A stretch of 64,000 nucleotides of DNA, from the NCBI GenBank assembly GCA_014859605.1, contig JACUTW010000002.1, positions 17,711-81,710 on the forward strand, written 5' to 3'. Shown one piece after another: positions 13,831 through 64,000 of this stretch (position 1 is its first letter; every line of letters starts with the position of its first letter). The notes under the pieces were generated by a model. That model was given only the letters and a program-made list of their open reading frames with translations, was not told the DNA's origin and made no database searches. The DNA comes from Desulfuromonadales bacterium (lineage in GTDB: Bacteria > Desulfobacterota > Desulfuromonadia > Desulfuromonadales > UBA2197). The translations under genes were made by a program, and so were the position numbers.

Positions 13831-14354
13831 TACAGCGTCTCACGCCCCGGGAAAAACTGGCTGTCGCCGTCGCCGGCGCTGTCGTCTCTCTGACCATCCT
13901 TGTCGCTGGGATTATTCTTCCTTATCGCACCGCCCTGGAGCGTCTTGACCAGCGCATTGCCAGTCGCCAGGGGCAACTCCTTGAGGCCCGCACTTTGCTG
14001 CAGCGCATCAAGGCGATGCAGGGGGAAGTTGCGGTGATGCAGCGCAAGTTGAGCGCGGCGCCCGCCGCCCCTCTGGTGGCAACTCTCGAAGGACTGGTTG
14101 CTGAAATTGCCGGCAAGGAGAAGCTCCTCGGCATCCGGCCGCAAGCGGTGACGGCTCCTTCCGGCTTCCGTCAGGAGAAGGTGGAGATGCAGCTCGAAAG
14201 AGTGCGTCTCGAACAGTTGGTGCAGCTTCTCCACGCGATCGACAGCGCCAAAAGCGTGATGCAGAGTGACAGTCTCAAGATGCGCCCCCGCTTTGAAGAT
14301 CCCGCCCTCCTCGACGTCACCCTCGTCGTCTCTTCCTTTGTCAGGGGATCGTGA
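13827..14354 (+). CDS. GspM/PilO-like bitopic membrane protein
   Basis: 175 aa. N-terminal TM, coiled region, then a ferredoxin-like C-domain pattern. Position directly after the GspL-like gene. Confidence 0.45.
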   Translation: MIQRLTPREKLAVAVAGAVVSLTILVAGIILPYRTALERLDQRIASRQGQLLEARTLLQRIKAMQGEVAVMQRKLSAAPAAPLVATLEGLVAEIAGKEKLLGIRPQAVTAPSGFRQEKVEMQLERVRLEQLVQLLHAIDSAKSVMQSDSLKMRPRFEDPALLDVTLVVSSFVRGS

Positions 14355-32173: not shown

Positions 32174-34669
32174 ATGTCAAAGTTCAACAAGCCACTTCTT
32201 TATCTGCTCTTTGCCCTGTCCGGATTCAGTGCGCTCGTTTATGAAATCCTTTGGACCCGCTACCTTTCCCTGACCTTCGGCACGACGATTGTTGCCGCGA
32301 GTGTGGTTGCTGCCACCTTTATGGCCGGGTTGGCCATCGGCAGTTACCTCCTCGGTCGTTATGCCGATCAGCAAAGCAATCTGCTGCGCGTCTATGCGTT
32401 TCTCGAAATCGGCATCGCCCTCTCCGCTTTCCTCTTCCCCCCGACCCTGCAAATCGTCGAAACCATTTACATCGGCATTCTCCAGGCCTTTCCGCACTAT
32501 CCGGGGATAACTCATCTCCTCCACTTTGCTTTTGCGGCCCTCCTCCTCCTCCCGCCGACGATCTGCATGGGCGGCACCTTTCCGCTCATGTGCCGTTTCT
32601 TTGCGCGGAAAAAATCTGGCGGACAGATCGGCCGTCTTTATGCCCTCAACACCTTCGGCGCTACGGCCGGTGCCTTTCTCGGGGGCTATCTGCTTATTCC
32701 TTCGCTCGGGATCTCGGCCACCGGTTATCTGGCAATCGCCATCAACCTCGGGATTGCCGCGGTCAGCTTCGCCCTTTCCCGGCAAATCGGCCATGCCGAT
32801 CCTCTCGACGTTTCCAGGGCGCGTCGCCCCGAACAGCCCCTGCTCTGGACAAAACACCGGAGCGTCCTTGTCGCCATCGGCTGCATCGGCCTCTTTTCCC
32901 TGGCTTACGAAATTCTTTGGACGCGGCTCTTTCTCCTCTTTTTAGGGAATACCACCTATGCCTTTTCATTGATTCTCAGTGCTTTTCTCATTGGTCTTGC
33001 CGCCGGTGGCGCCCAGTACGCGCGGATCGTCAAGCCGGAACTCAAGGAAAAAGAACTTTTTATTATCCTGACGACCCTGATGGCGCTGGTCGTGCTTTTC
33101 ACCGTCCCCTTTTATGATCAGTTGGCCCAACTTTTTCTCACCGCCCATCAGATTGCTGATGAGAGTTGGTGGCTCCTCTCTTTTCTTTCTTATCTGATAG
33201 TTTTGGTTGTCATCGCCGCCCCGGCGGTCCTTTCCGGTGCCCTCCTCCCGGCCGCAGTGGCGATCATCGATCCAGGAAAAGTGCGCACCGGCGAAGGGGT
33301 GGGGCTCGTCGTGCTGGCGAATACGGTCGGCGCTGTCCTTGGTGCGCTCCTTGCCGGTTTCCTCCTGATTCCTCTTTTGGGCGTGCAGAACAGTTTTCGC
33401 CTGCTCGCCGTCGGCAATCTCATTTTGGGTTTTTATCTTTTCCTGCGCTTTCGCCCGGCTGGAATCCTTCGCTTCCTGTGTCCGGCGTTCCTCGCCTGCG
33501 GACTTTTGGTCGCTATCTTCCCCATGACCTGGCGGCCGGAATTGATGAACAGCGGCGTTTATATCTATGCCCAGAAATATTTGCAGATGGGGGGGCTCGA
33601 CAAAATTCTTGCACAGGAAAGAATTCTCAAGGTTATTGAGGGGCGCGAAACGACCGTTGCCATTCATGAATCCCTCGATGGACAGAGCCGCTTTTTTACC
33701 GTCAACGGCAAGACCGACGGCGGCACCGGTATGGATATGGCGACGCAGATCCTCGTCGGTCAGCTCCCTCTCCTCCTCCATCCCGCCCCGGCGGAGGTGC
33801 TGGTCATCGGTCTTGGCACCGGCATCTCTCTGCATGGTCTGGCCGATCATCCGGTGAAGAAGATCGATTGTGTCGAGATCTCCCCGGAAGTTGTCAAAGC
33901 CTATGATTACTTCAAAGACGTCACCGACGATCCGCTGCAGGATCCTAAAGTTGAACTTCTTATCGATGACGGTCGTAATCACCTTCTGACCACGGCCAAG
34001 CAATATGACGTTATCGTCTCCGAGCCCTCGAATCCCTGGCAAAGCGGCAATGCCAATCTCTTTACCGACGATTTTTATAAAATAGCTGCCGCCCACCTCA
34101 AGCCGGATGGCCTCTTCTGTCAATGGATCGGACTTTACGACATTACCCCGGAAAATTTGCGCACCCTGGCCCGCACCTTTCTGCGCACCTTTCCGCGGGC
34201 GATGGTCTTCTCCGCCGGCAGTGATCTGGTGATTGTCGGCGCCCAGCAGGAACTGATCTTCGATTATGAAGCGCTGAACCGCCGCATGCAGGTGCCCGGC
34301 ATCAAGAATGCTCTGGCCGACATCGGCATTCACTCCCCCGGAGAGCTGATCGCTACTCACTATCTTTATTCTGAAGAGCCCTTTGCCCGGTTGGCGGGAA
34401 ATGCCCGAATCAACAGCGACGACCAGCCGATCCTGGAGTATTCAGCCCGCTATAATCTCGGCGCCAAGACTTTAGGGGAATTTCAAAAAGCGAATACGCA
34501 GTTGGTCCACCAATATCACGACAAAGTCTTTCTGCCGCTGCTCAACCTTGGCGCCACCCCGCTGCAGGTTGCTCAAACCTTGCGCGATCTCGGTCATGGC
34601 TATGCGAAGATCGGCAAGCCGGACGCGGCGCGAAATTTTTTGCGTAAAGCCGAGTCCCTGGAAAATTGA
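32174..34669 (+). CDS. fused polytopic membrane domain + spermidine-synthase-like methyltransferase-fold protein
   Basis: About 450 aa of TM segments, then VLVIGLGTGISL (SAM-type fold) and DVIVSEPSNPW, typical of spermidine-synthase-family fusions. TPR-like tail. Confidence 0.7.
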   Translation: MSKFNKPLLYLLFALSGFSALVYEILWTRYLSLTFGTTIVAASVVAATFMAGLAIGSYLLGRYADQQSNLLRVYAFLEIGIALSAFLFPPTLQIVETIYIGILQAFPHYPGITHLLHFAFAALLLLPPTICMGGTFPLMCRFFARKKSGGQIGRLYALNTFGATAGAFLGGYLLIPSLGISATGYLAIAINLGIAAVSFALSRQIGHADPLDVSRARRPEQPLLWTKHRSVLVAIGCIGLFSLAYEILWTRLFLLFLGNTTYAFSLILSAFLIGLAAGGAQYARIVKPELKEKELFIILTTLMALVVLFTVPFYDQLAQLFLTAHQIADESWWLLSFLSYLIVLVVIAAPAVLSGALLPAAVAIIDPGKVRTGEGVGLVVLANTVGAVLGALLAGFLLIPLLGVQNSFRLLAVGNLILGFYLFLRFRPAGILRFLCPAFLACGLLVAIFPMTWRPELMNSGVYIYAQKYLQMGGLDKILAQERILKVIEGRETTVAIHESLDGQSRFFTVNGKTDGGTGMDMATQILVGQLPLLLHPAPAEVLVIGLGTGISLHGLADHPVKKIDCVEISPEVVKAYDYFKDVTDDPLQDPKVELLIDDGRNHLLTTAKQYDVIVSEPSNPWQSGNANLFTDDFYKIAAAHLKPDGLFCQWIGLYDITPENLRTLARTFLRTFPRAMVFSAGSDLVIVGAQQELIFDYEALNRRMQVPGIKNALADIGIHSPGELIATHYLYSEEPFARLAGNARINSDDQPILEYSARYNLGAKTLGEFQKANTQLVHQYHDKVFLPLLNLGATPLQVAQTLRDLGHGYAKIGKPDAARNFLRKAESLEN

Positions 34670-50780: not shown

Positions 50781-51008
50781 TATTCCACGATTTCAGTCTT
50801 TGGTTGTTGTTGCTGACGATCTTTATGGTAATTTTTTCATGGCCCTTAGTGGCGCATGGAGTCTCTGGAGGTTTGTAATAAATCTTTCCTGGTCAATTAA
50901 TGGAGGAGGACGGGGAATGGGCACCCTTTTTGCTTTTATCGGAATCGCATCAATAAAATATCATCGATTAGGAAATATAAGATTTAAAGCCACTTAGGAG
51001 GCGCCGAT

Positions 51009-54000
51009 ATGAAACGGCTCGGACAAAAAATTTGTGTAGCAGTAGCGTTATCGCTGGCGTTTGTAGCCATATGGCACGATTCGGCGCAGGCCGCAATGCC
51101 GGTTATCAGCTCCCTTGGGCAAATCAAGAATAGTTCGGTTGTTACTCCGACCCGCATCGATGTTGATGCGGCCGGAACGATCTATCTTTGTGACGGTACT
51201 TTGAACGGGGTGGCGCGCTTTGATAAATATGGCAAAGCGCTTCAGGTTCTCAGGGGTGGATACAAGGTCAGGTCGAATGGTGTCGCTGTTACACCGGACG
51301 GAAGCCGTGTTTTTGTTTCTGTTTCCGAGCCGAACAGCGCTGTTGCCACTGCAGTTGCAGTCATTAACGGGTCTACTGGCGAGTTAATCGGCTATCTCGG
51401 TGGTGGTTTTGGCGAGTTTAAAGGGATTAGAGAGATTGACCTGGATGCGGCCGGAAATATCTATGTCGGTAATTACGATAAGGGCAAGACTGTCGCTACG
51501 GTCGCAGCCAATTTTGACACGACCGCTCAGATTGATGTTTATGATGGTGTCACCTACGCAAAGACACACTCCTTTGGTGCTCCCGCTTCGAATCTTGTCA
51601 ACGGCTATTATTTGCCTCTGGCCGGAGAGTTCGGTGAAATTGGCGGTTTGACGGTCGATGTTGTTAATCAGGAAGTCATCATCGCTGAGGGTTGGAATAA
51701 CAACGGGATTACCCGCGCGCAGGTTTTTTCTCTTGATGGAACATTGAAACGTCTCTTGACCGAGGCGGAAGTCTCCGGAACCCAGATTAACTGTAAGCCG
51801 GTGGGATTGACGGTCGATCCCACCGGTCGAGTTTACATGCTCAGTATTTTAACCAGTACCATTCATGCCTTTACCATTAATCCGGTGGTTCAGTATCTGG
51901 GGAAATTCACCAGTGGGACTCCTGACCCGGCTTATGATCCTATCACCGGGAAGGTTTATCCCTGGACGGTCGGGATGATTCCCTCCCCGGCTTTTGATGT
52001 GGTCTATGATTCTTTGACCAATCGTATCTTTGTCGTGACAGACGGTAACGGTATCCAGATCTTCTCGGTAGATGGTTCGACTAATCCGGTAAAGACCAAT
52101 AATGCTCCTGAAGCACCGGCTCTGATCAGCCCTGTTCAGGACGTTGTCGTCGCCACACTAACCCCGACTCTGCAGTGGTCGGCGGCCGTAGATGCAGATA
52201 ATGATGTTCTTTCCTACAATGTTCAGATCATGGCGTTAGATGGCACGATCGTCAGCAGTAACTCTAATATTGCAGCGACCAGTCATCCGGTTGCCGCCGG
52301 TAAATTGGTTGAAAATAGCTGGTACACCTGGCAGGTTCAGGCCGCTGATGCCGAGTTGACTTCGCCCTACAGTGCTGTCGGGAGTTTTTGGGTCAATGCG
52401 GTTGAGGAAGCGCCGACCGCAGCGCTCCTCCTTTCACCCGACAACGCTACCAGGGCCGACAAGGATACAATTTTCAGTTGGCAGGCGGCAACGGATGCCG
52501 ACCCCTTGAGCTCAATCAGTTACCGTTTGGAAATTGCCCGAAATGCGGATTTCACCGCACCAATCATCAGGATTGAACAGAGCGGGCTTAGCAGTGCCCC
52601 TCTGTCGACTTTGCCCGGTTATGACGACCTGCAATCCGGGACCACCTACGACTGGCGAGTTGTTGCAGTTGACAATAGTGCTAGCCGCTTGATCTCAACC
52701 AGTGCTGTCCGCTCCTTCTTTAGTAACAGCGCCCCCGAAATTCCGGTGATGCTCAGTCCGCTTCAGGGTGACGAAGTTGCAACCTTGACGCCGGATTTGC
52801 AGTGGGCGGCCCCTGTCGATGCCGATGGCGACACCCTGCGTTACAATGTCAGGATCGTTGATGCTGCCGGCGTGGTCGTGAGTACCAACAACTCTGTTGC
52901 GACGACAAACTTTATGGTTACGGGCGGAGTTCTCCTTGAAAACAATCAATATGGCTGGCAGGTCCAGGCCGATGATGGCAAGCTCACCTCTGACTTTAGC
53001 GAAATTAAATACTTCTGGGTCAATGCCGTTGAGGAGGCGCCGACCGCGCCAGCCCTTGACGCTCCGGCAGCTGTAATCAATGCTGACAAGGACACGACTT
53101 TTCATTGGCAGGCAGCAAGCGATCCTGATCCCCTTGCCTTCATCAGTTACCGTCTGGAAATTGCCCGGGATAGCGATTTCGCGACGCCAGTGATTGTTGT
53201 TGAGCAAGCGGAACTCTTCAGTGCCGTCCTCTCAGAAATGGCCGGTTATGACGACTTACAGGCGAATACAACGTACCAATGGCGTGTTCTTGCTATTGAT
53301 AATACCGGCTTGAGTACAGCGAGCGAAGTTCGCGCATTGACTTATGTCAGTACGATTCTGACGATTGACGCCACCTTCCCCGGCGCCAAAGTCTATCTCG
53401 GCGGCAATAGCGCTTATAGTGGTCGCTATGTTGGCGAAGTGCCGGTGGCGCTACGCGACATCGATCCCGGAACGATCGAAGTTGTTGTCGAACTTGCCGG
53501 TTTTGAACCGTGGATCAAAAGTGTTGTTGTGAACCAGTGGCAGGGTGTTGTTGTGACTGCCGACCTCGTCGTCGCCATTCTCCCCGGCGAGTTCAAGAAG
53601 GCCTCCCTGTTCGCCGGTGGTGTAAAGATTCAGGGCGGGCCTGAGGCTGCCCCGGTGCTTGTCGATTTCGATAGTGACGGAATCGATGATCTTCTCGTTG
53701 CCGATGGCAGCGGAAAACTCCTTCTCTACAAAGGGCTGGCCGGAGATGTCTGGTCGCTGGCGGCCGCTGTTCAGCTCCCGGGGGTGACTCTCCCTGTCGG
53801 TGCTGTTCCTTTTGTTGCTGATTGGAATAATGACAATCGGAAAGACCTCCTGGTCGGAGCCGCGGATGGTTCGGTCTCTCTTGCTCTCAATGTCGGGACA
53901 CAGGAATCGCCGGTCTTTGCCGCACTCATCTCGTTGCAGGCTGACAATGCTCCCTTGAGTGTCGGCAGCAATGCCGCCCCGCTCCTTTTTGATCTTGACG

Positions 54001-54710
54001 CTGACGGTGCTAAAGATCTTCTGGTCGGGAGTGGCGATGGTACACTCTACAGCTTCCGCAATATCGGTAGTGATGCGACCCCGGTCTTTGCGGCCCGCGA
54101 AGTGCTGATTGCCGCCGCTGCCGGCGCCTCGAATGCTTCAGCGCTTGTGTCGGATTGGGATGCGGATGGCAGTAAAGAGATCCTCCTCGCGGCAAATCAG
54201 GAAATTGCTTTGTATGAGCGTCAAGATGACGCTTATGTTAAAGGGGATCCTCTCCTCGTTCATCAGTCTCTCTATAATACTCGCTTGCGTTCATACGAAA
54301 TGCAGAGCAGCAGCTTCGGCGAAAAAATCCGTATGATTGCAGCTAATCCGGATGGCAAGTTTGGCAAAGACTTGCTGATAGGCAATGCCGCCGGAGAAAT
54401 TTTGTTGGCAAATTCGACGATGAATAAATCGCGGGCGATCTCTCCTCATTTTGATCTGGCATTAATGGCAACGGTCGCTGAAATCGAAGCACTGATTCAG
54501 GAGAATAGCTTGAACACGCCACTGCTCACCTTGACCTTGAGTCAGTTAAAGACGAATATTCAGTCACAGGCTGTCAATAAGTTGAAGAGCTACGATAAAG
54601 CCAAACAAAATGTGCTCTCTATGCAGTCCGCACTGCAAGAAAACACGGAAATTTCCGCAGTCATCAGTAAACTGCAGACCCAACTGAACAGCAAGATTCC
54701 TTTGAAATAA
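51009..54710 (+). CDS. secreted 1233-aa multidomain protein: NHL-like beta-propeller + 2x(approx. 209 aa) FN3/Ig-like tandem + PEGA + five FG-GAP/VCBS repeats + helical tail
   Basis: TAGGAGG RBS. Signal peptide ...WHDSAQA. NHL-like blades (IDVDAAGTIYLCD, IDLDAAGNIYVGN, LTVDPTGRVYMLS). PEGA-like ILTIDATFPGAKVYLGG...VVVELAGFEPW. FG-GAP repeats (VDFDSDGIDDLLVADGSGKLLLY, FDLDADGAKDLLVGSGDGTLYSF, etc.). Confidence 0.8.
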   Translation: MKRLGQKICVAVALSLAFVAIWHDSAQAAMPVISSLGQIKNSSVVTPTRIDVDAAGTIYLCDGTLNGVARFDKYGKALQVLRGGYKVRSNGVAVTPDGSRVFVSVSEPNSAVATAVAVINGSTGELIGYLGGGFGEFKGIREIDLDAAGNIYVGNYDKGKTVATVAANFDTTAQIDVYDGVTYAKTHSFGAPASNLVNGYYLPLAGEFGEIGGLTVDVVNQEVIIAEGWNNNGITRAQVFSLDGTLKRLLTEAEVSGTQINCKPVGLTVDPTGRVYMLSILTSTIHAFTINPVVQYLGKFTSGTPDPAYDPITGKVYPWTVGMIPSPAFDVVYDSLTNRIFVVTDGNGIQIFSVDGSTNPVKTNNAPEAPALISPVQDVVVATLTPTLQWSAAVDADNDVLSYNVQIMALDGTIVSSNSNIAATSHPVAAGKLVENSWYTWQVQAADAELTSPYSAVGSFWVNAVEEAPTAALLLSPDNATRADKDTIFSWQAATDADPLSSISYRLEIARNADFTAPIIRIEQSGLSSAPLSTLPGYDDLQSGTTYDWRVVAVDNSASRLISTSAVRSFFSNSAPEIPVMLSPLQGDEVATLTPDLQWAAPVDADGDTLRYNVRIVDAAGVVVSTNNSVATTNFMVTGGVLLENNQYGWQVQADDGKLTSDFSEIKYFWVNAVEEAPTAPALDAPAAVINADKDTTFHWQAASDPDPLAFISYRLEIARDSDFATPVIVVEQAELFSAVLSEMAGYDDLQANTTYQWRVLAIDNTGLSTASEVRALTYVSTILTIDATFPGAKVYLGGNSAYSGRYVGEVPVALRDIDPGTIEVVVELAGFEPWIKSVVVNQWQGVVVTADLVVAILPGEFKKASLFAGGVKIQGGPEAAPVLVDFDSDGIDDLLVADGSGKLLLYKGLAGDVWSLAAAVQLPGVTLPVGAVPFVADWNNDNRKDLLVGAADGSVSLALNVGTQESPVFAALISLQADNAPLSVGSNAAPLLFDLDADGAKDLLVGSGDGTLYSFRNIGSDATPVFAAREVLIAAAAGASNASALVSDWDADGSKEILLAANQEIALYERQDDAYVKGDPLLVHQSLYNTRLRSYEMQSSSFGEKIRMIAANPDGKFGKDLLIGNAAGEILLANSTMNKSRAISPHFDLALMATVAEIEALIQENSLNTPLLTLTLSQLKTNIQSQAVNKLKSYDKAKQNVLSMQSALQENTEISAVISKLQTQLNSKIPLK
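52098..53352 (+). repeat. in-frame tandem duplication (period about 627 nt) within the 1233-aa protein gene
   Basis: NNAPEAPALISPVQDVVVATLTPTLQWSAAVDADNDVLSYNVQI... is repeated as SNSAPEIPVMLSPLQGDEVATLTPDLQWAAPVDADGDTLRYNVRI... Both units end with a second module (FWVNAVEEAPTA...ISYRLEIAR..DF). Confidence 0.85.
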
Positions 54711-54745
54711 TACAGGGACTATCGATGCAAAACTGGAGAAAAAAG

Positions 54746-55522
54746 ATGCTTAGAAAATCCGTACTGGTTGTTGCTCTGCTTCTGGTCGCAACAAATCTAT
54801 GGGCGGCGAAAACCATGGATGTCTCAGGGACACGACATAATCTGTCGTCAACCTCGGTCAATATCCCCGGCGGCAACTATTATATGGCGACGAATGAAGA
54901 TGAAGTCTGCATCTTTTGCCATACGCCGCATGGTGGCACCATGAACACCCCCTTGTGGAACCGTGCCGTCCCGACCGGAACCGGTTTTACTCACTACACC
55001 AGTGCCACCCTTTCCGGCTATATGACGGGAGCAGGGATGTCGACCCGACCCGTCAATGCTGAGTCGCTCCTTTGTATGTCGTGTCACGATGGCTCTACGG
55101 CGATGAACAGTATCATCAATAACAGTAATCGCACTGCCGCTGCCCCGGATAATACGAGTAATATCCAACCCATGTTCTTTGCCATCGGCGGTGCGATCGG
55201 TGATGCTCCAGATCCAAGTGGGTGGGGCTTTTTAGGGGACACCAAAAACCTTTCCGACGATCATCCGATCTCCTTCAGTTATTCTTCATCTTATAACCAC
55301 ACGGATAACACCGGTGAGTTTCGTGCGCCGGCCGATGCCAAGACCTCGGGGATTCGCTTTTTTGGTGCGGATATTGCCACCGGTAATTTTGTCGAATGTT
55401 CGTCGTGCCATGATCCGCATGTGAATTACGAAGCCGCAAATGGTGGCGATACTGCTTATACTCCCTTTCTAGTAACACCGAACACCGGCAGTGCTCTTTG
55501 TCTCGCTTGTCACATTAAATAG
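54746..55522 (+). CDS. tetrahaem c-type cytochrome (two paired-CXXCH-like halves)
   Basis: GGAG lies 7 nt before ATG 54746. Signal MLRKSVLVVALLLVATNLWA. Haem motifs CIFCHTPH, CMSCHDG, CSSCHDPH, CLACH (last five residues before IK-stop). Confidence 0.85.
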   Translation: MLRKSVLVVALLLVATNLWAAKTMDVSGTRHNLSSTSVNIPGGNYYMATNEDEVCIFCHTPHGGTMNTPLWNRAVPTGTGFTHYTSATLSGYMTGAGMSTRPVNAESLLCMSCHDGSTAMNSIINNSNRTAAAPDNTSNIQPMFFAIGGAIGDAPDPSGWGFLGDTKNLSDDHPISFSYSSSYNHTDNTGEFRAPADAKTSGIRFFGADIATGNFVECSSCHDPHVNYEAANGGDTAYTPFLVTPNTGSALCLACHIK

Positions 55523-55533
55523 AAAGCTTGCAA

Positions 55534-55572
55534 GTGTTTAAAAAGCCCCAAAAGTCGGGGCTTTTTAAACAC
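55534..55572. terminator. strong bidirectional-type terminator hairpin
   Basis: Perfect 16-bp stem GTGTTTAAAAAGCCCC / GGGGCTTTTTAAACAC with a 7-nt loop (55550-55556). Confidence 0.75.
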
Positions 55573-55642
55573 ACATATCATTAGAAAAATTGAATTGAAA
55601 TATTTTCCTAAAAAGTTTTTGCTCTGACAGGAGTACGCAATT

Positions 55643-58600
55643 ATGCGCTTTCATGAAAATTTACTTGGTATAGTCCTGGCCATAAGTTTGTGTTTACCCC
55701 TGTCTGCCTTTGCAGCCAAAGTACATGATCAGGGATGTAATAACTGTCATCGGAGTGGCGCTAATCCCCGCACCTTAGCGAATCTGTGTACTCCCTGTCA
55801 TCTCTCCTTTGGATTAACAAAAGCGAGTGCCGCCTTGGGGAGTCATCCCTCTCCTCCAGAACCAATCTCCGGCGCAGAGACGGTCCATTTCTGGGGAGGA
55901 TCAACGACAACACAGCTAGAGGCGGGAGCAACCAATCCGCCGACGGCTTTTTATACCAGTCGCTATTCCATATCAAAAAACCGCGTGACCTGTACAATAT
56001 GCCACGATCCGCATGCTGATAAGGTCGTCAAGCCCACACTGCTTCGTGCCACAGCGGACGGAGACCTGATTTGCCAGCAATGTCACAGCAGCAGATTCGT
56101 TTCGAATGTCCCGGATACCAATGCCACCCTGACCCATCCCCTTGTCAGTGATTATGAAGCCTTTGCAGCCGCTAATCCGACTAAATACAAAACGCTGAGC
56201 AATTCAGCCAGCGGCGCTGTTCGTCTGGTTGCGGGTGATGTATCCTGTACCTCCTGTCATTCTCCGCACTTTGCAGACTCCTCCTCTGCGACAGAAGACG
56301 GTTTGTTAAATATTGCTGGACTGACTTCCGGAGACGGCTATCTCCTCCGTTCTGACGGTCCGCTCCGTACCGGCGCTAACCGCGACGGTGCTACCGGCAC
56401 GGGTCAGCTTCGCTCCAACCTCTGTCAGGCCTGTCATACTTACAAGATGCACGGAAAAGGTGGCAACCAGCAGATGATCGGTTGTCTCGACTGTCACGGT
56501 GGACATTCCTACAATAACGGAGCGATCAGCGCCTACGTTCTTGCCGGTAAGTCGCCGGATGCCGTACCGGTACGCGCCCTTCGTGCTCCGGCCGGGACAG
56601 CTCAGGTCACTTATGCGGCCTTTCCTGACGGCGGCAGTGTTAGAACCAAGTGGTCTGACAATACCAAGGGAACGGCTAACGGGTTCTGCGAAAAGTGTCA
56701 TGGTGATGTTCAGAATGATGGCCCTGGCGGACTTGGCAATATTGAACTTGAGCATTTGGAGGGCGGTTTAGCCGAATGTACCACTTGCCACAAACATGGT
56801 GAAACCACCTTCAGTTTTGCCAATGACGCAAACGCCGCCACCTGCGGCCAGTGTCATGGTTTCCCCCCTTATAAAAATATCAGCGGCTTCCGTAGCGAAA
56901 TCGGTGATGCGAATGACGGCGGCTGGGCGGATAACAATGTTGATTTGCCCCGCTATGGTTATACCGATAGCAGTCATTTCCTGGATGAATCAAAAGCCGG
57001 GCATAAAACCCATGCCGGCGCCAAACTGGCGGTGAATCCGGGTGAATGGTACTTTGTCGGCACCTCCGGCATCGACAACTGCAAACCTTGTCACGGTAAT
57101 CAGTCTGGCTCCCTCGCCGGCGGCCATCGTGTTCCGCTGTCAACCGATGCCAATACTTTCCGTGATGTTCATTTTGCTTCCACAGCAACTGTTGGTGGTT
57201 TGGTTCCCTCCTATAATACTGTTGCTCACAAGTGTGACAACACCTACTGTCACTCCAATGGTGGAAAACGCACTGGAGATGGACCGGTCCGCAGTTATGC
57301 TGCCCACACCACTCCGGCTTGGGTCGGCACCGGTGCTAACTACACCGCTGGCGGTTATGGTTCAATCTTCCTGCAACCGGTTGCAACCCGTTGCGCCGAC
57401 TGCCACGGGTACAGCGCAGCGACGATGACAGCACAGGGGAATTCGCCGGTACATAACGCCCATCTCGGCGCCGGTGCCACAGGGATCACTTACGAATGCG
57501 ACGTTTGTCATGTCGCAACGGCCGATAGCACAAGAGCATCAAAGCTGAAACTGGATGCGACCGATGGTCAAAAAGGTGGTAAACACGTCAACGGACAAAT
57601 CGAAGTCGGTTACAAAACCAGTGGTAACGCTTTGTTCGCGTCACTGGCAACTAATGCTGTCGGACCGAATTATGATCCTGTCACCGGTACCTGTTCTGTC
57701 TATTGTCACGATCCGGCTGATATCGGATTGACAGCAGATTGGGATGATACCACCGACATGCAGTGCGATACCTGTCACGGTGGTATCGCGACGGATACCT
57801 CTGCCAATGGCGGAATCGGGATCATCACCTCCGGATCTCATACCAGACACATCACCACCGCTAACGGTGGCCCCGGGCTTTCCTGTGAAGTCTGTCATGG
57901 CGCCAATACCACTGCCGGCACCCATAGCGGCCATCTCGACGGCATGAATAACATGGTGCCGCCGGTGGATGGTGTCAATTTCGCGGATGTCTGTGATGAA
58001 TGTCACGGCTATGACGCACAAGCCGGCGAAGTCAAACCAATCTGGGGAAATCCGGCGACAACCGACTGCGCCACCTGCCATTCCGGAACGCATAAGTCCT
58101 CGGGATGGGTCGGGGCACCGAATGCTCCACTCTTTGCGCTCGATCGCACGACTGGACATGGTCGTCCCGCCGCCAGCGGCAACTATCCGGTCACCGGCAA
58201 TGCGCCGGGTAACTCGGCCTGTCTCGATTGCCATGTCGCCACCGCCAGCGGTCACTTCAGCGGCGGGCTGGGTGATGCGCTGATGCTGCGCACCGACCTC
58301 GGCTTCCCGGCAACCTACAGCGGCAATGAAAATGCTTTCTGTGCCAACTGCCACGGCACCGCGCCGGCGCATCCGACCAAAACAGCCAGTGCCGCAACCC
58401 GCAATATCGGCACCCATGCGGCAAAGCGTTGCATCGGCTGTCATGACCTGCACGGCACAGCGAACATTCATATGGTCACGGAACTAAGGGCCACCCAGAA
58501 TGTCAAGGATAACTCCGCCACCGGTAAATATAGCGGCAACGTCTCCTTCCTGCAGATAACCGGTCTTAATTCCTACGACGAGGATGACGGGGAGGTTGGC

Positions 58601-61600
58601 GGCGCTGGTGAAGTCAACGCTGATGATATCTGCGCCACTTGTCATACCGTGGCTGGCGGCGTCCTGCACAACAACAGCAATAATTCGGCCGTTGATCACT
58701 TCCAGGGGAAAGATTGTATCACCTGTCACGGCAATCATCAGATCAGCGGCAATGCTTTCAAGGTCAGGCAGTGCGACGATTGTCACGGTGGTATCAGTAC
58801 TGATACTTCTGCAGACGGCGGAGTCGGGGTCATCACCACCGGTTCCCATACTCGTCACATTACCACCGCCAACGGCGGTCCGGGCCTGTCCTGCGACATC
58901 TGTCACGGCGCAAATGCAACAATCGGCACCCACCCCGGCCACATCGACGGCACAAATAACATGGTACCGACCAACTATCCGGCCAGCTTTGCCGATATCT
59001 GCGATGAGTGCCATGGCTATGACAACGAACCCGGCGAGGTCAAACCGATCTGGGGCTCCCCGGCAACCACCGATTGTGCCACCTGTCACGCCGGATCTCT
59101 GATCAGTGATGGCTGGCCCGGTGCAGCCAATCCCCCGACCTTTACCTTTGCCCGCACCAGCGGCCACGGACGTCTCCCGGCCAGCGGCACCTACCCGGTC
59201 TCCGGCAATGCCGCCGGTAACTCCAACTGTCTTGACTGCCATGTAGCGACGGGCAGTGGCCACTTTAGCGGCGGACTTGGCGATGCATTGATGCTGCGCA
59301 CCGACGTCGGCTTCCCGGCAACCTACACCGGCAACGAAAATATCTTCTGCGCCGCTTGCCATAGTGCGGCCCCGACCCATCCGACTAAATCGGCAACTGC
59401 CGCGACCCGCGGTATCACCACCCATGCGGGAAAAACCTGCATTGCCTGTCACGACCTGCATGGCACCGGCAATATCCAGATGGTGATTGCCTCGCAGACA
59501 GAGCAAAATACCAAAGACAATTCATCAAACGGTCAATATACCGGCAGTGTTTCGTTCCTGGCGATTACCGGCGCCAACTCCTATGACGAAGACGATGGTG
59601 CAGCCGGCGGTGCCGGAGAAATCAACGGCGACGATATCTGCGCCACCTGCCATCTCCTGGCAGAAGGGGTTACCCACAATAACAGCAATAATTCAACTGG
59701 TAACCATTACCAGGGTGAGGATTGCTTTACCTGTCATTCCGGCCACAAAAATGCGACCAACTCCTTCATCGCAGGTGCCGGTACGGCTTGTAACGATTGT
59801 CATGGCAACCCGCCGAATACTGGTGCGCACGGTACCGGCAGTAACAAACACACCCGGGTTTCGTCGAATGACCGAACCCTCGAAGATCTGACCGATTGTG
59901 CTTACTGTCACACCGGCGCGAACGATTACACCTACGATCTTGGCGCTGACCAAGGCGCCGTTGGTGCCCGCGCCAACCACGGCAGCGGCAATCGCGTCGC
60001 GGTCCTTGCCACGTCCATCGGTTACAGCCAGAGCGGTAACCTTTGGGGCTGCGCCAACGTTTGTCACACCTCGTCGGCAGCCGATAGTTTCTGGTTCGAT
60101 AAGAGTAGCGGCAGTGACCCGGCGACCTGGATCAAAGATACCAACGGCATTTCCTGTAATGCCTGCCACTTCTATGCGCCGACCGTTTCTGCGGCCAGTG
60201 TTCCGAACAATCTTTCGGATGTTCACGACGAGCACTTTGCCGCCGGCAAAGGGTGCGCCGAATGCCACCCGATGACCGGTGACTACAACAGCGGCGTCGG
60301 GCATGCAGGACCGTTGACCCATATCGACAGTTTCGATTTCGGTAGCGGTAAAGATGACAATGACGGCCTGGCCCTCGTCGATATGGCGCAGGCAACTCAG
60401 GATGAAGCCGGCTACGACAAAGGCGGCGGCGTTCGCGATGTCGTCCGTGCCGGGATGACCTATACCGATGCCAATACCTGCTCGGGCGGTATCGGTCTCG
60501 GTTGCCATGCCACCGGAGTTCCGGATTGGGATATTCCTATCCCCAACAACAATGCCGGTTGCCTGGAATGTCACACCGACACCAACAACGGCGCGGTTGG
60601 CAACCCTGTCTCCGGTATTCATGACAACAGTCCCAACGGCCCGACAGTCACCGGCGTCGCTCACGACGGCAGCTTCGATAACGGCAGCGGCGGAATTGCC
60701 GATTGCGTGACCTGCCACTCCCTTACCCCGACAGTTGTCGCTGCCAATCACATGAATGGCACCATCAACACCGGCACGGCGATCACCGTTCTCCCCATCG
60801 CCGGCTATAACCAGGCAACCAGCAGCTGTACAACTGCCTGCCACAGCGCTGGTACGGCCTGGGCTTACAAGTGGTCGTTGAGCGCATACGCTACCAACGG
60901 GACCGAGTGTGCCAACTGTCACGGTGACTATGCTACCGGTTGGGTCAGTGGCGTGGCGCCACATACCGAGAACCCGACCCGCGGCAGCAAGCACAACGCG
61001 ACCGGCAATTTGACCTATCCCTGCGCCGAATGTCATGGCATTGGATCTCCCGGCTACAAATGGACGACCATGTGGGATCCGACCGGCGCCACCAGCCATC
61101 ATGGCGACGACAAGATCACCATGAGCAATTCGGCAGTACATACTTTTGCCATCGACACCGCCCCGAACCCGGATCGTGCCGGCTGTACAACTACGAGTTG
61201 CCACGGCAACGACAGCTTGCACAACTTCCGCGTTACGACGACATCCCTGCCGACGGCAACAGTTACCGGCATCGAGGCGGCGATTCTCTGTTCAAGCTGT
61301 CACGGCGGTTATGTCGGCACCAATGCCAACGGCTACTGGCCGGACGGTGCCAACGCTGTCGATAATGGTAGCGAAGACAACAGTGGTGCCCACTTAAAGC
61401 ATATGGTCTATCTCGCGAAGTCGATCTACGATGAGGATCTTGCCGGGCTGCTGACCGATAATGGCAAGGGAGACGCTGATGCAAAACAGAAGGAACTCTG
61501 TTCCTACTGTCATAATGCGCCTGGTTCCGACGGTGACCATGGCCCGGTTGCCAGCCTGCCGGCCGAAGTCAATAGCATGTACAAAGGTTGGCTGCCGAAG

Positions 61601-64000
61601 ACCGCTGACAACGGCGTCTGGAGCGCCGCCAGCAAGACCTGTGCGACGGTCGATTGTCACTTTAACAAAACGACTCCGACAACCAACGACTGGTACGCCC
61701 CGCTTAACAACGGCAACTGCGCTATGTGCCATGTCGATGTGACGGTTGAAACCGCCCACACCAAACATACCTCGGCGGCGACCGCGACCACCTTCGGGCG
61801 CGCCTCCCTCTGCTCCGATTGCCATGAAGCCGCGACCAACTGGGGGACCAACACCGGTCCGGCCACAGGTCACATTGACGGTGTTTATACGGTCGCCGGC
61901 AGCAAAATGACCTCCTATGTCGGCTTTACTTATCCGGCGGTGAAGGGCACCTGCGGCACCAACGCTTGTCACAACAACGGCATTGGCGGCGCACCGATTA
62001 TCGATCCGGTCTGGGGAACGACGCAGGCAAACTGTACAATCTGTCACGCAGGCACCCCGGCGACCGGCACGCACGTCAAGCACATGAGCAACACGGCATG
62101 GGTGTCGGGTGGCTGCAGCGACTGTCACACCGACTCGACAGCTTCTGTAATATCGGCATCTACTCACATGGATGGCGTCCGTAACGCCGGCGGTAGCAAG
62201 AATGTTGTCAATAACGCCAACGGTTCCTGCACCAATACCTGCCATCTCTCTGCCGAGGCCGGGAACTGGACCGGCAACAGCAGCAATATTACTTGTACGG
62301 ACTGCCACAGCGGCAGCGGCGCGTCGGCTTATATCGGCGGCAACAAGACCAGCGTTGGCGGTCCCAACTACATGCCGCAGTACAACATGCACCTGACGGT
62401 TCCGACGGTCTCTGGCAAGGTCCATACGGCTGCCGGTCTTGCCACCGCCTGTACCACCTGCCACAGCAATCTCGCTGACAAGACCACCCACATGAACGGG
62501 GTCTGGACAGCAGATGATGCCGACAACACCAATGACCAGCACCGTGGTCTCTTTGCCGGCTTCACTGACGGGACGGTTCCGACCTGTAACACCGCCTGTC
62601 ACAGTGCCGGTGCCGCCTGGGCCTACAAGTGGTCCGCTACTGCCGGGGCGACGAACGGCACTCAATGCGATAACTGCCACGGTCGCTTCTCAACCGGCTT
62701 TAACGCCGGAGTTATGCACCAGCTCATGGACAGCCGTGGCAATAACGCGCATACCAACAGTGGCAACCTTGCTTATCCCTGTACCGACTGCCACGCGATC
62801 GGTGCCAGCAGCGGTAATTATCCCTTCGCCAATATCAGCAACGACTGGAAAGCGACCGACGCCGGTGCAACCACTCCACACGGCGATGGTTTCATCACCC
62901 TGAACAGCAACGGAACCACCTGGGCCCGCCTTGGCGGTCGCTCCGGTTGCTCTGCCTGCCACGCTGGCGCGACCGGTACGGCGAATAATTATGATTATCC
63001 GACAACTGCCTGGACGTCTCAAACGGTTCTCGGCGATCCGCCTGACGTGAGCGGCAGTTGCACCGCCTGCCATGGCGGCGCGGAATACTGGCCAGACGGC
63101 ACAGTCGCTCCGGATCGTACCGGAAAACATTCCGCCCATGTCCACGCCATTGCGGTTCAACTCGGCGGCGACACGGCGGGGAATCGTAACGCAACCTGTT
63201 CCTATTGCCACCCCAATCCAGGTGAATCCGGGCACAATGACGGCGGCTCGGCCGAAGTCGGACTGTTCAAGAATATCCTCACCGGCGCCTTTACCGATCC
63301 TGACGGGGTCCTCAATACTGCCGACTCAACCTGCAGTCTGGTCGATTGCCACTTTAATAATGCCGTCACTCCGCATTGGTATACCGACATCTATCCGCCG
63401 GCACAGGTGACCTTGACCGCCACCACCGGTGTTGCTGCCAAGCCGCGTTCGATCAATGTCAGTTGGACCTCGCCGGGTGATGACGCTAACGTCGCCAACA
63501 CCACGGTGCACCGTTACGATATGCGTTACGGTACCAGCAGCGCGATTGCCAGCGATTTTGGTCGTACGGACAATTATGCTGGCGGGTTACCTTTGGCTTA
63601 TGCCCAGGGGACGCTCCAGGATGTCACTATTGATAACCTGACGCCGGGAACGACCTACTACTTCAGCCTGCGCAGTCAGGATGTTGCCGGTAACTGGTCA
63701 ACGCCATCCGCTGTCGTCAGCGCCGTGGCGAGCGGTGATACGGTTGTACCGTACTTCGGTGGCGTCAACCGTGCGGCCAAGGCCGATGAATCACAAACCA
63801 TCAATGTCGAATGGTCGCCGGCTGAAGACCACACCATGCCGATCACCTACAAGATCTGGGTCAAGCCGGTTTCGTCCGGTGCCCTTGATATGGATATTGA
63901 TGCACCGCTGTTGACCGGCGTCAAAGGCTACAAGTACCAATTGACCTCTGCCAACGGCGTCGTCAATGACATGATTTATCAGGTTGGTGTGCGTGCTTGT
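55643..64000 (+). CDS. giant multihaem c-type cytochrome, 3' end beyond the window (at least 2,786 codons); NOT in the supplied ORF table
   Basis: Frame +2 is open from ATG 55643 to 64000, with an in-frame TGA at 55625-27 and AGGAG at 55629-33. Frame checked at 56762, 57764, 60002 and 63002. Signal MRFHENLLGIVLAISLCLPLSAFA. Hand count is 52 CXXCH + 11 CX3/4/7CH. FN3-like modules from about 63395. No other +2-frame ORF appears in the table for this span. Confidence 0.9.
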   Translation, partial: MRFHENLLGIVLAISLCLPLSAFAAKVHDQGCNNCHRSGANPRTLANLCTPCHLSFGLTKASAALGSHPSPPEPISGAETVHFWGGSTTTQLEAGATNPPTAFYTSRYSISKNRVTCTICHDPHADKVVKPTLLRATADGDLICQQCHSSRFVSNVPDTNATLTHPLVSDYEAFAAANPTKYKTLSNSASGAVRLVAGDVSCTSCHSPHFADSSSATEDGLLNIAGLTSGDGYLLRSDGPLRTGANRDGATGTGQLRSNLCQACHTYKMHGKGGNQQMIGCLDCHGGHSYNNGAISAYVLAGKSPDAVPVRALRAPAGTAQVTYAAFPDGGSVRTKWSDNTKGTANGFCEKCHGDVQNDGPGGLGNIELEHLEGGLAECTTCHKHGETTFSFANDANAATCGQCHGFPPYKNISGFRSEIGDANDGGWADNNVDLPRYGYTDSSHFLDESKAGHKTHAGAKLAVNPGEWYFVGTSGIDNCKPCHGNQSGSLAGGHRVPLSTDANTFRDVHFASTATVGGLVPSYNTVAHKCDNTYCHSNGGKRTGDGPVRSYAAHTTPAWVGTGANYTAGGYGSIFLQPVATRCADCHGYSAATMTAQGNSPVHNAHLGAGATGITYECDVCHVATADSTRASKLKLDATDGQKGGKHVNGQIEVGYKTSGNALFASLATNAVGPNYDPVTGTCSVYCHDPADIGLTADWDDTTDMQCDTCHGGIATDTSANGGIGIITSGSHTRHITTANGGPGLSCEVCHGANTTAGTHSGHLDGMNNMVPPVDGVNFADVCDECHGYDAQAGEVKPIWGNPATTDCATCHSGTHKSSGWVGAPNAPLFALDRTTGHGRPAASGNYPVTGNAPGNSACLDCHVATASGHFSGGLGDALMLRTDLGFPATYSGNENAFCANCHGTAPAHPTKTASAATRNIGTHAAKRCIGCHDLHGTANIHMVTELRATQNVKDNSATGKYSGNVSFLQITGLNSYDEDDGEVGGAGEVNADDICATCHTVAGGVLHNNSNNSAVDHFQGKDCITCHGNHQISGNAFKVRQCDDCHGGISTDTSADGGVGVITTGSHTRHITTANGGPGLSCDICHGANATIGTHPGHIDGTNNMVPTNYPASFADICDECHGYDNEPGEVKPIWGSPATTDCATCHAGSLISDGWPGAANPPTFTFARTSGHGRLPASGTYPVSGNAAGNSNCLDCHVATGSGHFSGGLGDALMLRTDVGFPATYTGNENIFCAACHSAAPTHPTKSATAATRGITTHAGKTCIACHDLHGTGNIQMVIASQTEQNTKDNSSNGQYTGSVSFLAITGANSYDEDDGAAGGAGEINGDDICATCHLLAEGVTHNNSNNSTGNHYQGEDCFTCHSGHKNATNSFIAGAGTACNDCHGNPPNTGAHGTGSNKHTRVSSNDRTLEDLTDCAYCHTGANDYTYDLGADQGAVGARANHGSGNRVAVLATSIGYSQSGNLWGCANVCHTSSAADSFWFDKSSGSDPATWIKDTNGISCNACHFYAPTVSAASVPNNLSDVHDEHFAAGKGCAECHPMTGDYNSGVGHAGPLTHIDSFDFGSGKDDNDGLALVDMAQATQDEAGYDKGGGVRDVVRAGMTYTDANTCSGGIGLGCHATGVPDWDIPIPNNNAGCLECHTDTNNGAVGNPVSGIHDNSPNGPTVTGVAHDGSFDNGSGGIADCVTCHSLTPTVVAANHMNGTINTGTAITVLPIAGYNQATSSCTTACHSAGTAWAYKWSLSAYATNGTECANCHGDYATGWVSGVAPHTENPTRGSKHNATGNLTYPCAECHGIGSPGYKWTTMWDPTGATSHHGDDKITMSNSAVHTFAIDTAPNPDRAGCTTTSCHGNDSLHNFRVTTTSLPTATVTGIEAAILCSSCHGGYVGTNANGYWPDGANAVDNGSEDNSGAHLKHMVYLAKSIYDEDLAGLLTDNGKGDADAKQKELCSYCHNAPGSDGDHGPVASLPAEVNSMYKGWLPKTADNGVWSAASKTCATVDCHFNKTTPTTNDWYAPLNNGNCAMCHVDVTVETAHTKHTSAATATTFGRASLCSDCHEAATNWGTNTGPATGHIDGVYTVAGSKMTSYVGFTYPAVKGTCGTNACHNNGIGGAPIIDPVWGTTQANCTICHAGTPATGTHVKHMSNTAWVSGGCSDCHTDSTASVISASTHMDGVRNAGGSKNVVNNANGSCTNTCHLSAEAGNWTGNSSNITCTDCHSGSGASAYIGGNKTSVGGPNYMPQYNMHLTVPTVSGKVHTAAGLATACTTCHSNLADKTTHMNGVWTADDADNTNDQHRGLFAGFTDGTVPTCNTACHSAGAAWAYKWSATAGATNGTQCDNCHGRFSTGFNAGVMHQLMDSRGNNAHTNSGNLAYPCTDCHAIGASSGNYPFANISNDWKATDAGATTPHGDGFITLNSNGTTWARLGGRSGCSACHAGATGTANNYDYPTTAWTSQTVLGDPPDVSGSCTACHGGAEYWPDGTVAPDRTGKHSAHVHAIAVQLGGDTAGNRNATCSYCHPNPGESGHNDGGSAEVGLFKNILTGAFTDPDGVLNTADSTCSLVDCHFNNAVTPHWYTDIYPPAQVTLTATTGVAAKPRSINVSWTSPGDDANVANTTVHRYDMRYGTSSAIASDFGRTDNYAGGLPLAYAQGTLQDVTIDNLTPGTTYYFSLRSQDVAGNWSTPSAVVSAVASGDTVVPYFGGVNRAAKADESQTINVEWSPAEDHTMPITYKIWVKPVSSGALDMDIDAPLLTGVKGYKYQLTSANGVVNDMIYQVGVRAC
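57764..59788 (+). repeat. in-frame tandem duplication of a 336/339-codon, nine-CXXCH unit inside the giant cytochrome
   Basis: Unit 1 is 57764-58771 (QCDTCHGGIATDTSANGG...). Unit 2 is 58772-59788 (QCDDCHGGISTDTSADGG...). About three-quarters of residues are identical by eye. The same similarity shows in the antisense shadow ORFs 57641..58471 and 58484..59506. Confidence 0.85.

Follow-up and report, generated by a model that had tools for sequence, protein, structure and literature searches.

Introduction

Very large multihaem cytochromes predicted from the genomes of Desulfuromonadia are the closest described counterparts of the gene analysed here. 'Desulfuromonas soudanensis' WTL encodes DSOUD_0664, a predicted extracellular protein with 69 haem-binding motifs (PMC4914508), and a 2024 survey of 4,716 Desulfuromonadia cytochromes describes a tail of proteins with up to 87 motifs, those that have been characterised being several-fold smaller (PMC11492766). 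To explain this tail, the survey suggests that such proteins store electrons or transfer them over long distances, with a discussion of long periplasmic wires, and it sets the 350 Angstroms modelled for a 27-haem Geobacter wire beside a periplasm of about 170 Angstroms (PMC11492766). Here, we analysed a stretch of 64,000 nucleotides from a Desulfuromonadales bacterium (GenBank assembly GCA_014859605.1, contig JACUTW010000002.1, positions 17,711 to 81,710 of the forward strand; hereafter the window), whose last 8,358 nt hold the first part of a giant multihaem cytochrome gene (hereafter the giant). With its start corrected and its missing end supplied by a database entry, the giant encodes a secreted protein of 4,059 residues with about 75 haem motifs, which we consider likely to act as an extracellular electron conduit, a haem wire of the cell envelope that possibly works with an OmcE-type filament.

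DSOUD_0664 and the giants of the survey belong to the same class as this protein, with sizes and motif counts of the same order, an extracellular prediction and, according to these two papers, no characterised member. The roughly 69-motif Desulfuromonas protein that an earlier, sequence-only reading of the window (the initial annotation) had mentioned corresponds to DSOUD_0664 as described in PMC4914508, and its remark that no protein of such a size has been characterised is in line with the survey (PMC11492766). Its claim of extreme size stands in that the protein is indeed very large, but the giant is less exceptional than was supposed: the size class is already documented, with up to 87 motifs in the literature consulted, the protein is already in NCBI nr, and 55 of the 103 homologues that we retrieved carry at least 60 CX2-4CH motifs, with a maximum of 94. 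The likeness to DSOUD_0664 is one of description, and D. soudanensis is not among the 50 loci that share the C-terminal pattern of the giant (see below), which hints at a different family. A keyword search of the three papers cited in this section found no description of the two-part domain plan with its spacer of fibronectin type III (FN3) domains, the C-terminal signature, the corrected start or the OmcE-linked cluster reported below, and a literature search for phrases of the type 'giant multiheme' or 'giant cytochrome' returned no match.

Filament-forming cytochromes provide another point of comparison. According to a 2025 preprint on OmcE bundles, an omcE cluster is defined by OmcE itself, a large beta-barrel protein and two each of multihaem cytochromes and beta-propeller lipoproteins; beta-propeller proteins are characteristic of these clusters, and no protein is known to form the base or the tip of OmcE filaments or to act as their stopper (10.1101/2025.10.22.684050). 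The locus studied here departs from this description, since it encodes one propeller protein that is not a lipoprotein, one OmcE-like protein and one giant, and neither a large beta-barrel protein nor lipoprotein propellers are seen in it. The giant also shares with the GSU1996 'c7 polymer' and the 27-haem Geobacter wire the principle of concatenated small haem modules. It has, however, six and three times as many haems as these proteins, respectively, and its FN3 region and C-terminal domain are without counterpart there.

Results

The giant gene and its true start

Computed translation of frame +2 from ATG 55643 to base 64000 yielded 2,786 codons and 0 stops, as the initial annotation had stated. 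The in-frame TGA that it placed 18 nt upstream of the start lies at 55625-55627, and the AGGAG that it placed 9 nt upstream lies at 55629-55633. The giant was missing from the list of open reading frames (ORFs) that accompanied the sequence because this list leaves out ORFs running off the source, which is the explanation that had been offered. Four minus-strand ORFs are listed in its place: 57641-58471 (276 aa), 58484-59506 (340 aa), 59693-61222 (509 aa) and 61394-62680 (428 aa). As already proposed, these are antisense shadows and not genes, since they lie inside a plus-strand gene whose product has homologues at E = 0.

The remainder of the giant was obtained from P0001, a protein of 3,945 aa deposited in NCBI nr from a Desulfuromonadales metagenome-assembled genome (MAG) under the automatic name "CxxxxCH/CxxCH domain-containing protein". 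P0001 shows 100% identity to residues 116-2786 of the giant, and the part of the giant beyond residue 2786 is known from this entry only. Joining the window part to P0001 gives the full product of 4,059 aa and puts the predicted stop beyond the window, near window-equivalent coordinate 67822. The NCBI start of P0001 is a GTG at codon 115 of the window frame, which drops the signal peptide and two CXXCH motifs. Five homologues (P0003, P0004, P0014, P0019 and P0044) begin with signal peptides that align with the one encoded from ATG 55643, a 74%-identical relative (locus L058) keeps the ATG and the signal-peptide coding sequence 5' of the start called there, and the ribosome-binding site stands at the right distance. 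Together, these comparisons identify ATG 55643 as the true start. The gene calls of P0001 and of the closest relative, P0002 (JGI), both begin too late and both lack the signal peptide and the first two CXXCH motifs.

The N-terminus of the giant reads MRFHENLLGIVLAISLCLPLSAFA followed by AKVH, a Sec-type signal peptide with no lipobox (judged by eye, no predictor being used). The Sec signal peptide claimed by the initial annotation is thus borne out, with cleavage between AFA and AK, and it is conserved in homologues. Inspection by eye revealed no convincing lipobox in the giant or in the product of the first cluster gene (1,233 aa).

Haem motifs, domain layout and internal duplications

Our computed count for the window part of the giant is 52 CXXCH, 5 CX3CH, 5 CX4CH and 1 CX7CH, or 63 motifs, which matches exactly the 52 canonical and 11 other motifs that had been counted by hand. 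The full protein contains 62 CXXCH, 5 CX3CH, 5 CX4CH and 3 longer CXnCH motifs (about 75 motifs), with a computed mass of the mature apoprotein of about 419 kDa, about 465 kDa with 75 haems, and an isoelectric point of 5.6. From the N-terminus onwards, it is composed of the signal peptide, a haem region with 63 motifs, about 600 aa of FN3/Ig-like sequence and an 870-residue C-terminal domain with 12 motifs. The 63 motifs fall within the first 2,572 residues at one per about 40 residues, in a run of haem modules of about 2,550 residues. The initial annotation had correctly seen FN3-like modules after the haem region; taking them for the end of the protein did not hold, since 1,273 more residues follow the window part, comprising Ig/FN3-like sequence and the 12-motif cytochrome domain.

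The haem region has grown by repeated module duplication. Two adjacent copies of a 336-aa module with nine haem motifs follow the N-terminal head (Table 1). They are 71-76% identical at the nucleotide level in direct repeats (72% overall) and 72-74% identical at the amino-acid level, with a synonymous divergence (dS) of about 1.4 and a ratio of nonsynonymous to synonymous divergence (dN/dS) of 0.13. Because of this identity and these rates, we consider the duplication to be old and both copies to be under purifying selection. The closest homologues of the giant carry one copy of the module, and the module of P0002 is 81% identical to copy 2 and 71% identical to copy 1; by this comparison, copy 2 is the orthologue of the single module of the relatives, and copy 1 is equidistant. 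Residues 1378-2572 are made of further haem modules, among which a chunked self-BLAST, the method used for internal protein repeats, found the older duplication of residues 1688-2008 and 2270-2572: residues 1688-1828 are 43% identical to residues 2270-2421 (E = 5e-28) and residues 1851-2008 are 32% identical to residues 2437-2572. The same search recovered a repeat within the FN3/Ig-like region (residues 2599-2688 against 3089-3179). Pfam fn3 matched the window part of this region (residues 2599-2690) at 8.6e-8 and the whole region at 1.4e-18 in two stretches.

Haem density in the C-terminal domain is about half that of the N-terminal region. Most giants end in QNCHR...GGWNKVTPW, often as the very C-terminus, and the family C-terminal domain has an invariant Cys (NCLD) 45 residues ahead of an invariant Cys-His (QNCH). 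This pair could be a disulfide, or else a haem site of the CXnCH type with a very long spacing. Immediately ahead of the final GGWNKVTPW, P0001 has an insertion of about 85 aa that is rich in Thr and Gly and has a weak KOW-like match (residues ~3845-3935); the insertion is common to P0001, P0002, P0006, P0011 and P0014, and most relatives are without it.

Across an alignment of 19 homologous sequences with 47-76% identity, the Cys and His columns of the motifs are invariant, which argues that the haem motifs are not chance occurrences. The alignment of the giant family (A1) further contains 75 non-motif His conserved in at least 85% of sequences, against 60 conserved motif His. This supply of distal His would suffice for bis-His ligation throughout the giant, and most haems are therefore expected to be bis-His ligated. 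The protein combines the features of a multihaem c-type cytochrome, namely CXnCH motifs, a Sec signal peptide and a supply of distal His, and we infer covalent haem loading from its sequence.

Homologues and the reality of the gene

The possibility that the giant is an assembly or annotation artefact, whether a concatenation of smaller cytochrome genes, a repeat expansion or a pseudogene, deserves consideration because the gene contains internal repeats and comes from a MAG. We regard it as extremely unlikely. The frame runs for 8,358 nt without a stop, and collinear homologues of 3,400-4,750 aa are present in dozens of independent assemblies, including that of a cultured isolate. The 72% nucleotide identity of the module copies, with dN/dS of 0.13, corresponds neither to collapsed nor to expanded reads, and synteny with L058 spans the entire cluster. 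As to the three outcomes that the initial annotation had named as fatal, the assembled frame contains no stop, the motif count does not fall below about 50, and misassembly is excluded by the independent collinear homologues together with the 28% nucleotide divergence of the module copies.

The 103 homologues come from many independent assemblies (NCBI, JGI, ENA and Logan); 55 of them are at least 3,000 aa long and 15 at least 4,000 aa, and the ten that were compared pairwise with the giant are all collinear with it. We then used the 705-aa head in a HMMER search of 1.84 billion cluster representatives, which returned 185 proteins at E <= 0.001, including 76 at E <= 1e-30. Nearly all were aligned from their own N-termini, and their lengths range from about 1,000 to 4,450 aa. 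So few matches among so many representatives indicate that the family defined by the head is small, and its members differ mainly in the number of modules after the head, as judged from these alignments. Both marks of the family are found in the giant: the head at its N-terminus and a C-terminal domain ending in QNCHR...GWNKVTPW.

A scan of GTDB (one genome per species) with two patterns of the C-terminal domain identified 50 loci, the best match being 57% identical. Nearly all belong to uncultured Desulfuromonadales or Geobacteraceae, and one cultured isolate, IMCC39146, carries two copies (L007 and L008). A scan of JGI metagenomes matched L057, which is 56% identical to the giant. The C-terminal ~470 residues are the most widely shared part of the protein, many loci matching only residues 3374-3846. 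Relatives often have two or three giants of 3,674-4,446 aa in tandem, as consecutive cytochrome genes that span more than 35 kb (L002/L054/L056 on one 111-kb contig, and L001/L055). In the long-read MAG of L036 (9614-22230), the coding sequence of the giant is scattered over many ORFs of 260-813 aa, which looks like the result of frameshift errors rather than a genuine split and calls for caution with motif counts from such assemblies.

Assignment to known families

Profile searches, a check that the initial annotation had listed, found matches to several multihaem models. In Pfam, the giant matched Cytochrome_C7 (2.4e-51, six stretches), the MtrC/MtrF II-IV domain (8e-45, six stretches) and Cytochrom_c3_2 (1.6e-29). 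In NCBIfam, it matched TIGR01904 in four stretches with 60.0 bits against a cut-off of 27, whereas the related PF09698 of Pfam scored 18.8 bits, below its cut-off of 21.7. The giant is accordingly a member of TIGR01904, a Geobacter-type domain that it carries four times; the label applies to a small part of the protein and does not describe a function. Besides fn3, only cytochrome modules and no catalytic family were found in Pfam and NCBIfam. A sequence search of the PDB with the whole giant identified no chain at E <= 0.01.

The MtrC/MtrF II-IV match is a feature shared with the MtrC/OmcA/MtrF cytochromes, and the best structural match, a weak one, is MtrA (see below). The giant nevertheless lies outside the MtrC/OmcA decahaem family as defined in NCBIfam: TIGR03507 did not match, and the DmsE model reached 63.6 bits against a cut-off of 192. 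It also differs from these systems in that no MtrB-type porin gene is seen next to it.

A conserved cluster with an OmcE-like gene

Housekeeping genes (PBP1A, nth, hypD and uvrC) precede position 51009, an assignment supported by the Pfam-annotated synteny of L058. Downstream of them, the cluster is arranged as a sigma54-type promoter-like element, a beta-propeller/FN3 gene, an OmcE-like tetrahaem gene, a hairpin and the giant (Table 1). The order propeller protein, OmcE-like protein, giant is kept in L058 (which is fully syntenic, including hypD and uvrC), L007, L013, L031 and L036, and partly in L011.

Table 1. Features of the giant cytochrome locus, in window coordinates
Feature	Coordinates	Strand	Evidence
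Sigma54-type promoter-like element GGCAC-N5-TTGC, 76 nt 5' of the first cluster gene	50920..50933	+	Exact match
Secreted 1,233-aa protein with NHL-like propeller, FN3/Ig-like, PEGA and FG-GAP propeller domains; first cluster gene	51009..54710	+	Pfam
OmcE-family tetrahaem cytochrome, 265 aa, 4 CXXCH, signal peptide; immediately 5' of the giant	54725..55522	+	phmmer
Hairpin with GC core GCCCC/GGGGC and A-/T-run flanks, between the OmcE-like gene and the giant	55534..55572	+	RNA fold
Ribosome-binding site AGGAG, 9 nt 5' of ATG 55643	55629..55633	+	Read in sequence
Giant multihaem cytochrome gene, first 2,786 of 4,059 codons	55643..64000	+	0 stops, 63 haem motifs, identity with P0001
Sec signal peptide, 24 aa, cleavage between AFA and AK	55643..55714	+	Translation; aligned signal peptides in homologues
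N-terminal head, residues 1-705, 15 haem motifs, family-defining	55643..57757	+	HMMER
Di-haem unit, residues 158-266, with homology to the OmcE-like neighbour (C-terminal half of the latter)	56114..56440	+	hhalign
Four antisense shadow ORFs, not genes	57641..62680	-	Wholly inside the plus-strand gene
336-aa 9-haem module, copy 1, residues 706-1041	57758..58765	+	Direct repeats, 1,008-nt spacing
336-aa 9-haem module, copy 2, residues 1042-1377	58766..59773	+	Orthologous to the one module of relatives
Older internal repeat, copy 1, residues 1688-2008, 8 motifs with CX3CH and CX4CH among them	60704..61666	+	Self-BLAST
Older internal repeat, copy 2, residues 2270-2572, 8 motifs	62450..63358	+	Self-BLAST
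First FN3 domain, residues 2599-2688, opening the ~600-aa non-haem FN3/Ig-like region	63437..63706	+	Pfam fn3

The GGCAC-N5-TTGC element occurs twice in the whole window against 0.78 occurrences expected by chance. The same element was found at the equivalent place in L058 (5097), L013 (4823) and L036 (5264) and directly 5' of the giants in L001 (9860) and L059 (9876), which amounts to six independent loci including the window. At the place of the element, L007 has TGGTAT-N5-TTGCA, with two mismatches and the correct spacing. A histidine kinase and a sigma54-dependent response regulator are encoded just upstream in L007, L013 and L036. Given the recurrence of the element and the presence of these regulators in relatives, the cluster is likely to be under sigma54-dependent control, and the giant would be the last gene of a conserved, apparently sigma54-controlled unit. 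A search for another sigma54 promoter, in the interval that separates the giant from the OmcE-like gene, was negative: the window lacks the GG of the -24 element, and L058 has an incorrect spacing.

The first gene of the cluster encodes the 1,233-aa protein, which has a signal peptide visible in the translation, Pfam matches to fn3 (8.8e-17), Ig_Rha78A_N (5.4e-16), FG-GAP_3 (4e-12) and PEGA (1.6e-7) and a weak NHL-type match in NCBIfam. No sequence relative of this protein was found in the PDB. Its orthologues occupy the same position in L058, L007, L013, L031 and L036.

The product of the second gene resembles PDB entry 7tfs, which we take to be the filament subunit OmcE of Geobacter sulfurreducens. 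With phmmer, residues 15-265 of this 265-aa protein aligned with residues 10-232 of 7tfs_A at E = 5.6e-28, and 9yuq_N was matched at E = 3.7e-20; the PDB table names the chains of both entries only as cytochrome c. The four CXXCH motifs and the distal His H38, H69, H180 and H232 are invariant in six orthologues. This neighbour of the giant is therefore a full-length OmcE homologue with all haem ligands, encoded beside a propeller gene as in omcE clusters, and it has what membership of the OmcE family calls for, namely full-length homology, four CXXCH motifs and four distal His. We propose it as a candidate filament subunit. Taken as a whole, the giant is not a homologue of OmcE, although one di-haem unit of it (Table 1) resembles half of the OmcE-like protein: an hhalign comparison of the OmcE-like profile (A2) with that of the giant (A1) gave a probability of 97.4% and E = 1.5e-11 over 83 columns, corresponding to a two-haem half. 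OmcE-like genes adjoin giants in L058, L007, L013, L031, L036 and L011. A universal co-occurrence of the two genes was rejected: L059 and L055 are without the OmcE-like and propeller neighbours, and L054 has a gene for a 484-aa FG-GAP protein and no OmcE-like gene.

The hairpin between the OmcE-like gene and the giant has a folding energy of -25.7 kcal/mol (z = -6.5 relative to shuffled sequences). Its stem is kept in L058, where the changes fall in the loop, and a simple terminator scan did not list it. We consider it a candidate terminator or attenuator on the basis of its predicted fold; by attenuating read-through, it could keep the output of the giant low while the subunit is made in quantity.

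The most widely conserved neighbour of the giants is a lipoprotein of about 450-470 aa with an N-terminal domain of unknown type and C-terminal TPR repeats, whose gene immediately follows the giant or giants on the opposite strand in at least 18 loci (L058 21271-22620 and L007 21919-23340, both on the minus strand, and at least 16 further loci). Its place in the present contig would fall outside the window. As a speculation, this lipoprotein may recognise the conserved peptide at the C-terminus of the giants.

Two features of the surroundings lie further from the cluster. GspL-/GspM-like type II secretion genes are present at 12436-14354 (plus strand), about 41 kb upstream of the giant and beside the cobalamin genes cbiX/C/D, and type II secretion is a possible export route for the giant. 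An 831-aa fusion of an MFS transporter with a spermine/spermidine synthase is encoded at 32174-34669 (plus strand), and a similar gene of 848 aa follows the giant in L001 (21408-23954, minus strand); this probably reflects a shared genome neighbourhood.

Discussion

Proposed function and alternative explanations

Our favoured interpretation, which we hold to be probable, is that the giant is an extracellular electron conduit, possibly associated with an OmcE-type filament. The protein would be a single-polypeptide haem wire, tens of nanometres long and situated in or on the cell envelope, that grew by repeated duplication of modules and whose haems would form a continuous chain. In its metal-respiring Desulfuromonadales host, it would conduct respiratory electrons from the periplasm or the outer surface to insoluble acceptors or partner cells. 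Scaled from the 350-Angstrom 27-haem wire, 63-75 haems would measure about 80-100 nm if extended. The FN3/Ig spacer, the OmcE-type and PEGA/FG-GAP neighbours and this predicted length lead us to place the giant at or beyond the cell surface.

Several observations weigh against this interpretation. An AlphaFold2 model of a 344-residue module, built from an alignment of 43 sequences, reached moderate confidence only (mean predicted local distance difference test score, pLDDT, 70.6; predicted template modelling score, pTM, 0.73), and that of residues 1688-2572 (885 residues, nine-sequence alignment) is unusable at a pLDDT of 28.6. A Foldseek search of the PDB with the module model gave nothing significant, the best match being MtrA (6r2q_A) at E = 3.5. 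The partnership with an OmcE-like protein is not obligatory, as judged from the loci in which the neighbours are absent (L059, L055 and mostly L054). No porin or beta-barrel domain was found with Pfam at 51009-64000 or in the flanks of L058 and L007, where several flanking genes have no Pfam match; the adjacent beta-barrel porin gene that marks a porin-cytochrome (Pcc/Mtr) conduit was accordingly not seen in the window or in these flanks, and a periplasmic location is compatible with this. The stop and the downstream genes of this contig are deduced from P0001 and the syntenic L058. Finally, the family is known from genes alone: the giant, its motif content, conservation, synteny and homology are read directly in the sequence, and its haem loading, localisation, function as a wire and partnership with the OmcE-like protein are deduced from them.

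If the giant stayed in the periplasm, it could serve as an electron store ('capacitor') or as a bridge between the membranes, buffering or relaying electrons on their way from inner-membrane quinol oxidases to outer-membrane conduits. Its signal peptide indicates Sec export only, neither a porin gene nor a dedicated secretion gene is adjacent, and both electron storage and long periplasmic wires are discussed in the survey (PMC11492766). Yet FN3/Ig-like modules and neighbours of the PEGA, FG-GAP and OmcE-like types are typical of surface or extracellular proteins, and an extended chain of 63-75 haems would be several times as long as the periplasm is wide according to the same source, so that we consider a periplasmic role improbable. 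The C-terminal domain raises another alternative, in which the giant would be a redox enzyme with a long electron-input arm and this domain would be catalytic or substrate-binding (for example, for metals, sulfur or humic compounds). The wide distribution of the last ~470 residues, the halved haem density and the invariant non-haem residues with the invariant Cys...Cys-His pair fit such a role; the absence of any catalytic family in Pfam and NCBIfam, of a CXXCK motif and of an obvious open-coordination haem signature in the giant makes it very unlikely.

An alternative that would be compatible with the conduit model assigns the giant to the end of a filament, as the base, nucleator or tip adaptor of an OmcE-type nanowire. 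It would then not be a free-standing wire, but either the base next to the cell or the distal tip in contact with minerals, and the OmcE-like tetrahaem protein would polymerise onto it. Contact with the end of the filament would be made by the di-haem unit at residues 158-266, with its homology to the C-terminal half of the OmcE-like protein, and the C-terminal peptide would be anchored at the outer membrane by the TPR lipoprotein. Consistent with this idea are the OmcE homologue directly upstream in six loci and the window, a hairpin after the putative subunit gene as behind many major-subunit genes, the TPR lipoprotein encoded beside giants in at least 18 loci and the conserved C-terminal GWNKVTPW, together with the statement of the preprint that no base or tip protein is known (10.1101/2025.10.22.684050). 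On the other hand, the giants of L059, L055 and L054 have no OmcE-like neighbour, the homology is limited to a widespread 'paired CXXCH' di-haem unit and does not extend to the whole OmcE fold, and the large beta-barrel and lipoprotein propellers described for canonical omcE clusters in that preprint are not seen here. We therefore treat an adaptor role as possible, if on the unlikely side. A more elaborate version, in which the giant is a dedicated part of an OmcE-based nanowire system of a type not recognised before, is doubtful at present. Its first part, to which we give no greater credence, is a sigma54 operon that would deliver the propeller/FN3 protein, an abundant OmcE-type subunit and, by read-through of the hairpin, a little of the giant. 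Equally conjectural is the further step that a 75-haem 'root' or 'tip' of about 80-100 nm links the filament to the envelope or to minerals while the TPR lipoprotein holds it at GWNKVTPW.

Implications

Under the conduit interpretation, cytochromes of 60-90 haems are the longest single-polypeptide electron conduits predicted in biology, and none has been purified or imaged. To this class, the locus adds a full-length gene model, corrected so as to include the signal peptide, and a domain plan made of a haem wire, an FN3 spacer and a conserved C-terminal domain. It also adds a genetic context (an OmcE-type subunit, a propeller protein, a TPR lipoprotein and putative sigma54 control) that turns the giant into part of a testable system. 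The same cluster is present in a cultured isolate, IMCC39146, which allows direct tests of expression, of localisation and of a possible physical link between giants and nanowires. If the nanowire-system hypothesis is true, it would answer the question of what caps the ends of cytochrome nanowires. The link to OmcE, if true, would bear on how nanowires root in the cell and touch minerals, and would also provide bioelectronics with a self-contained protein wire about 0.1 micrometre long.

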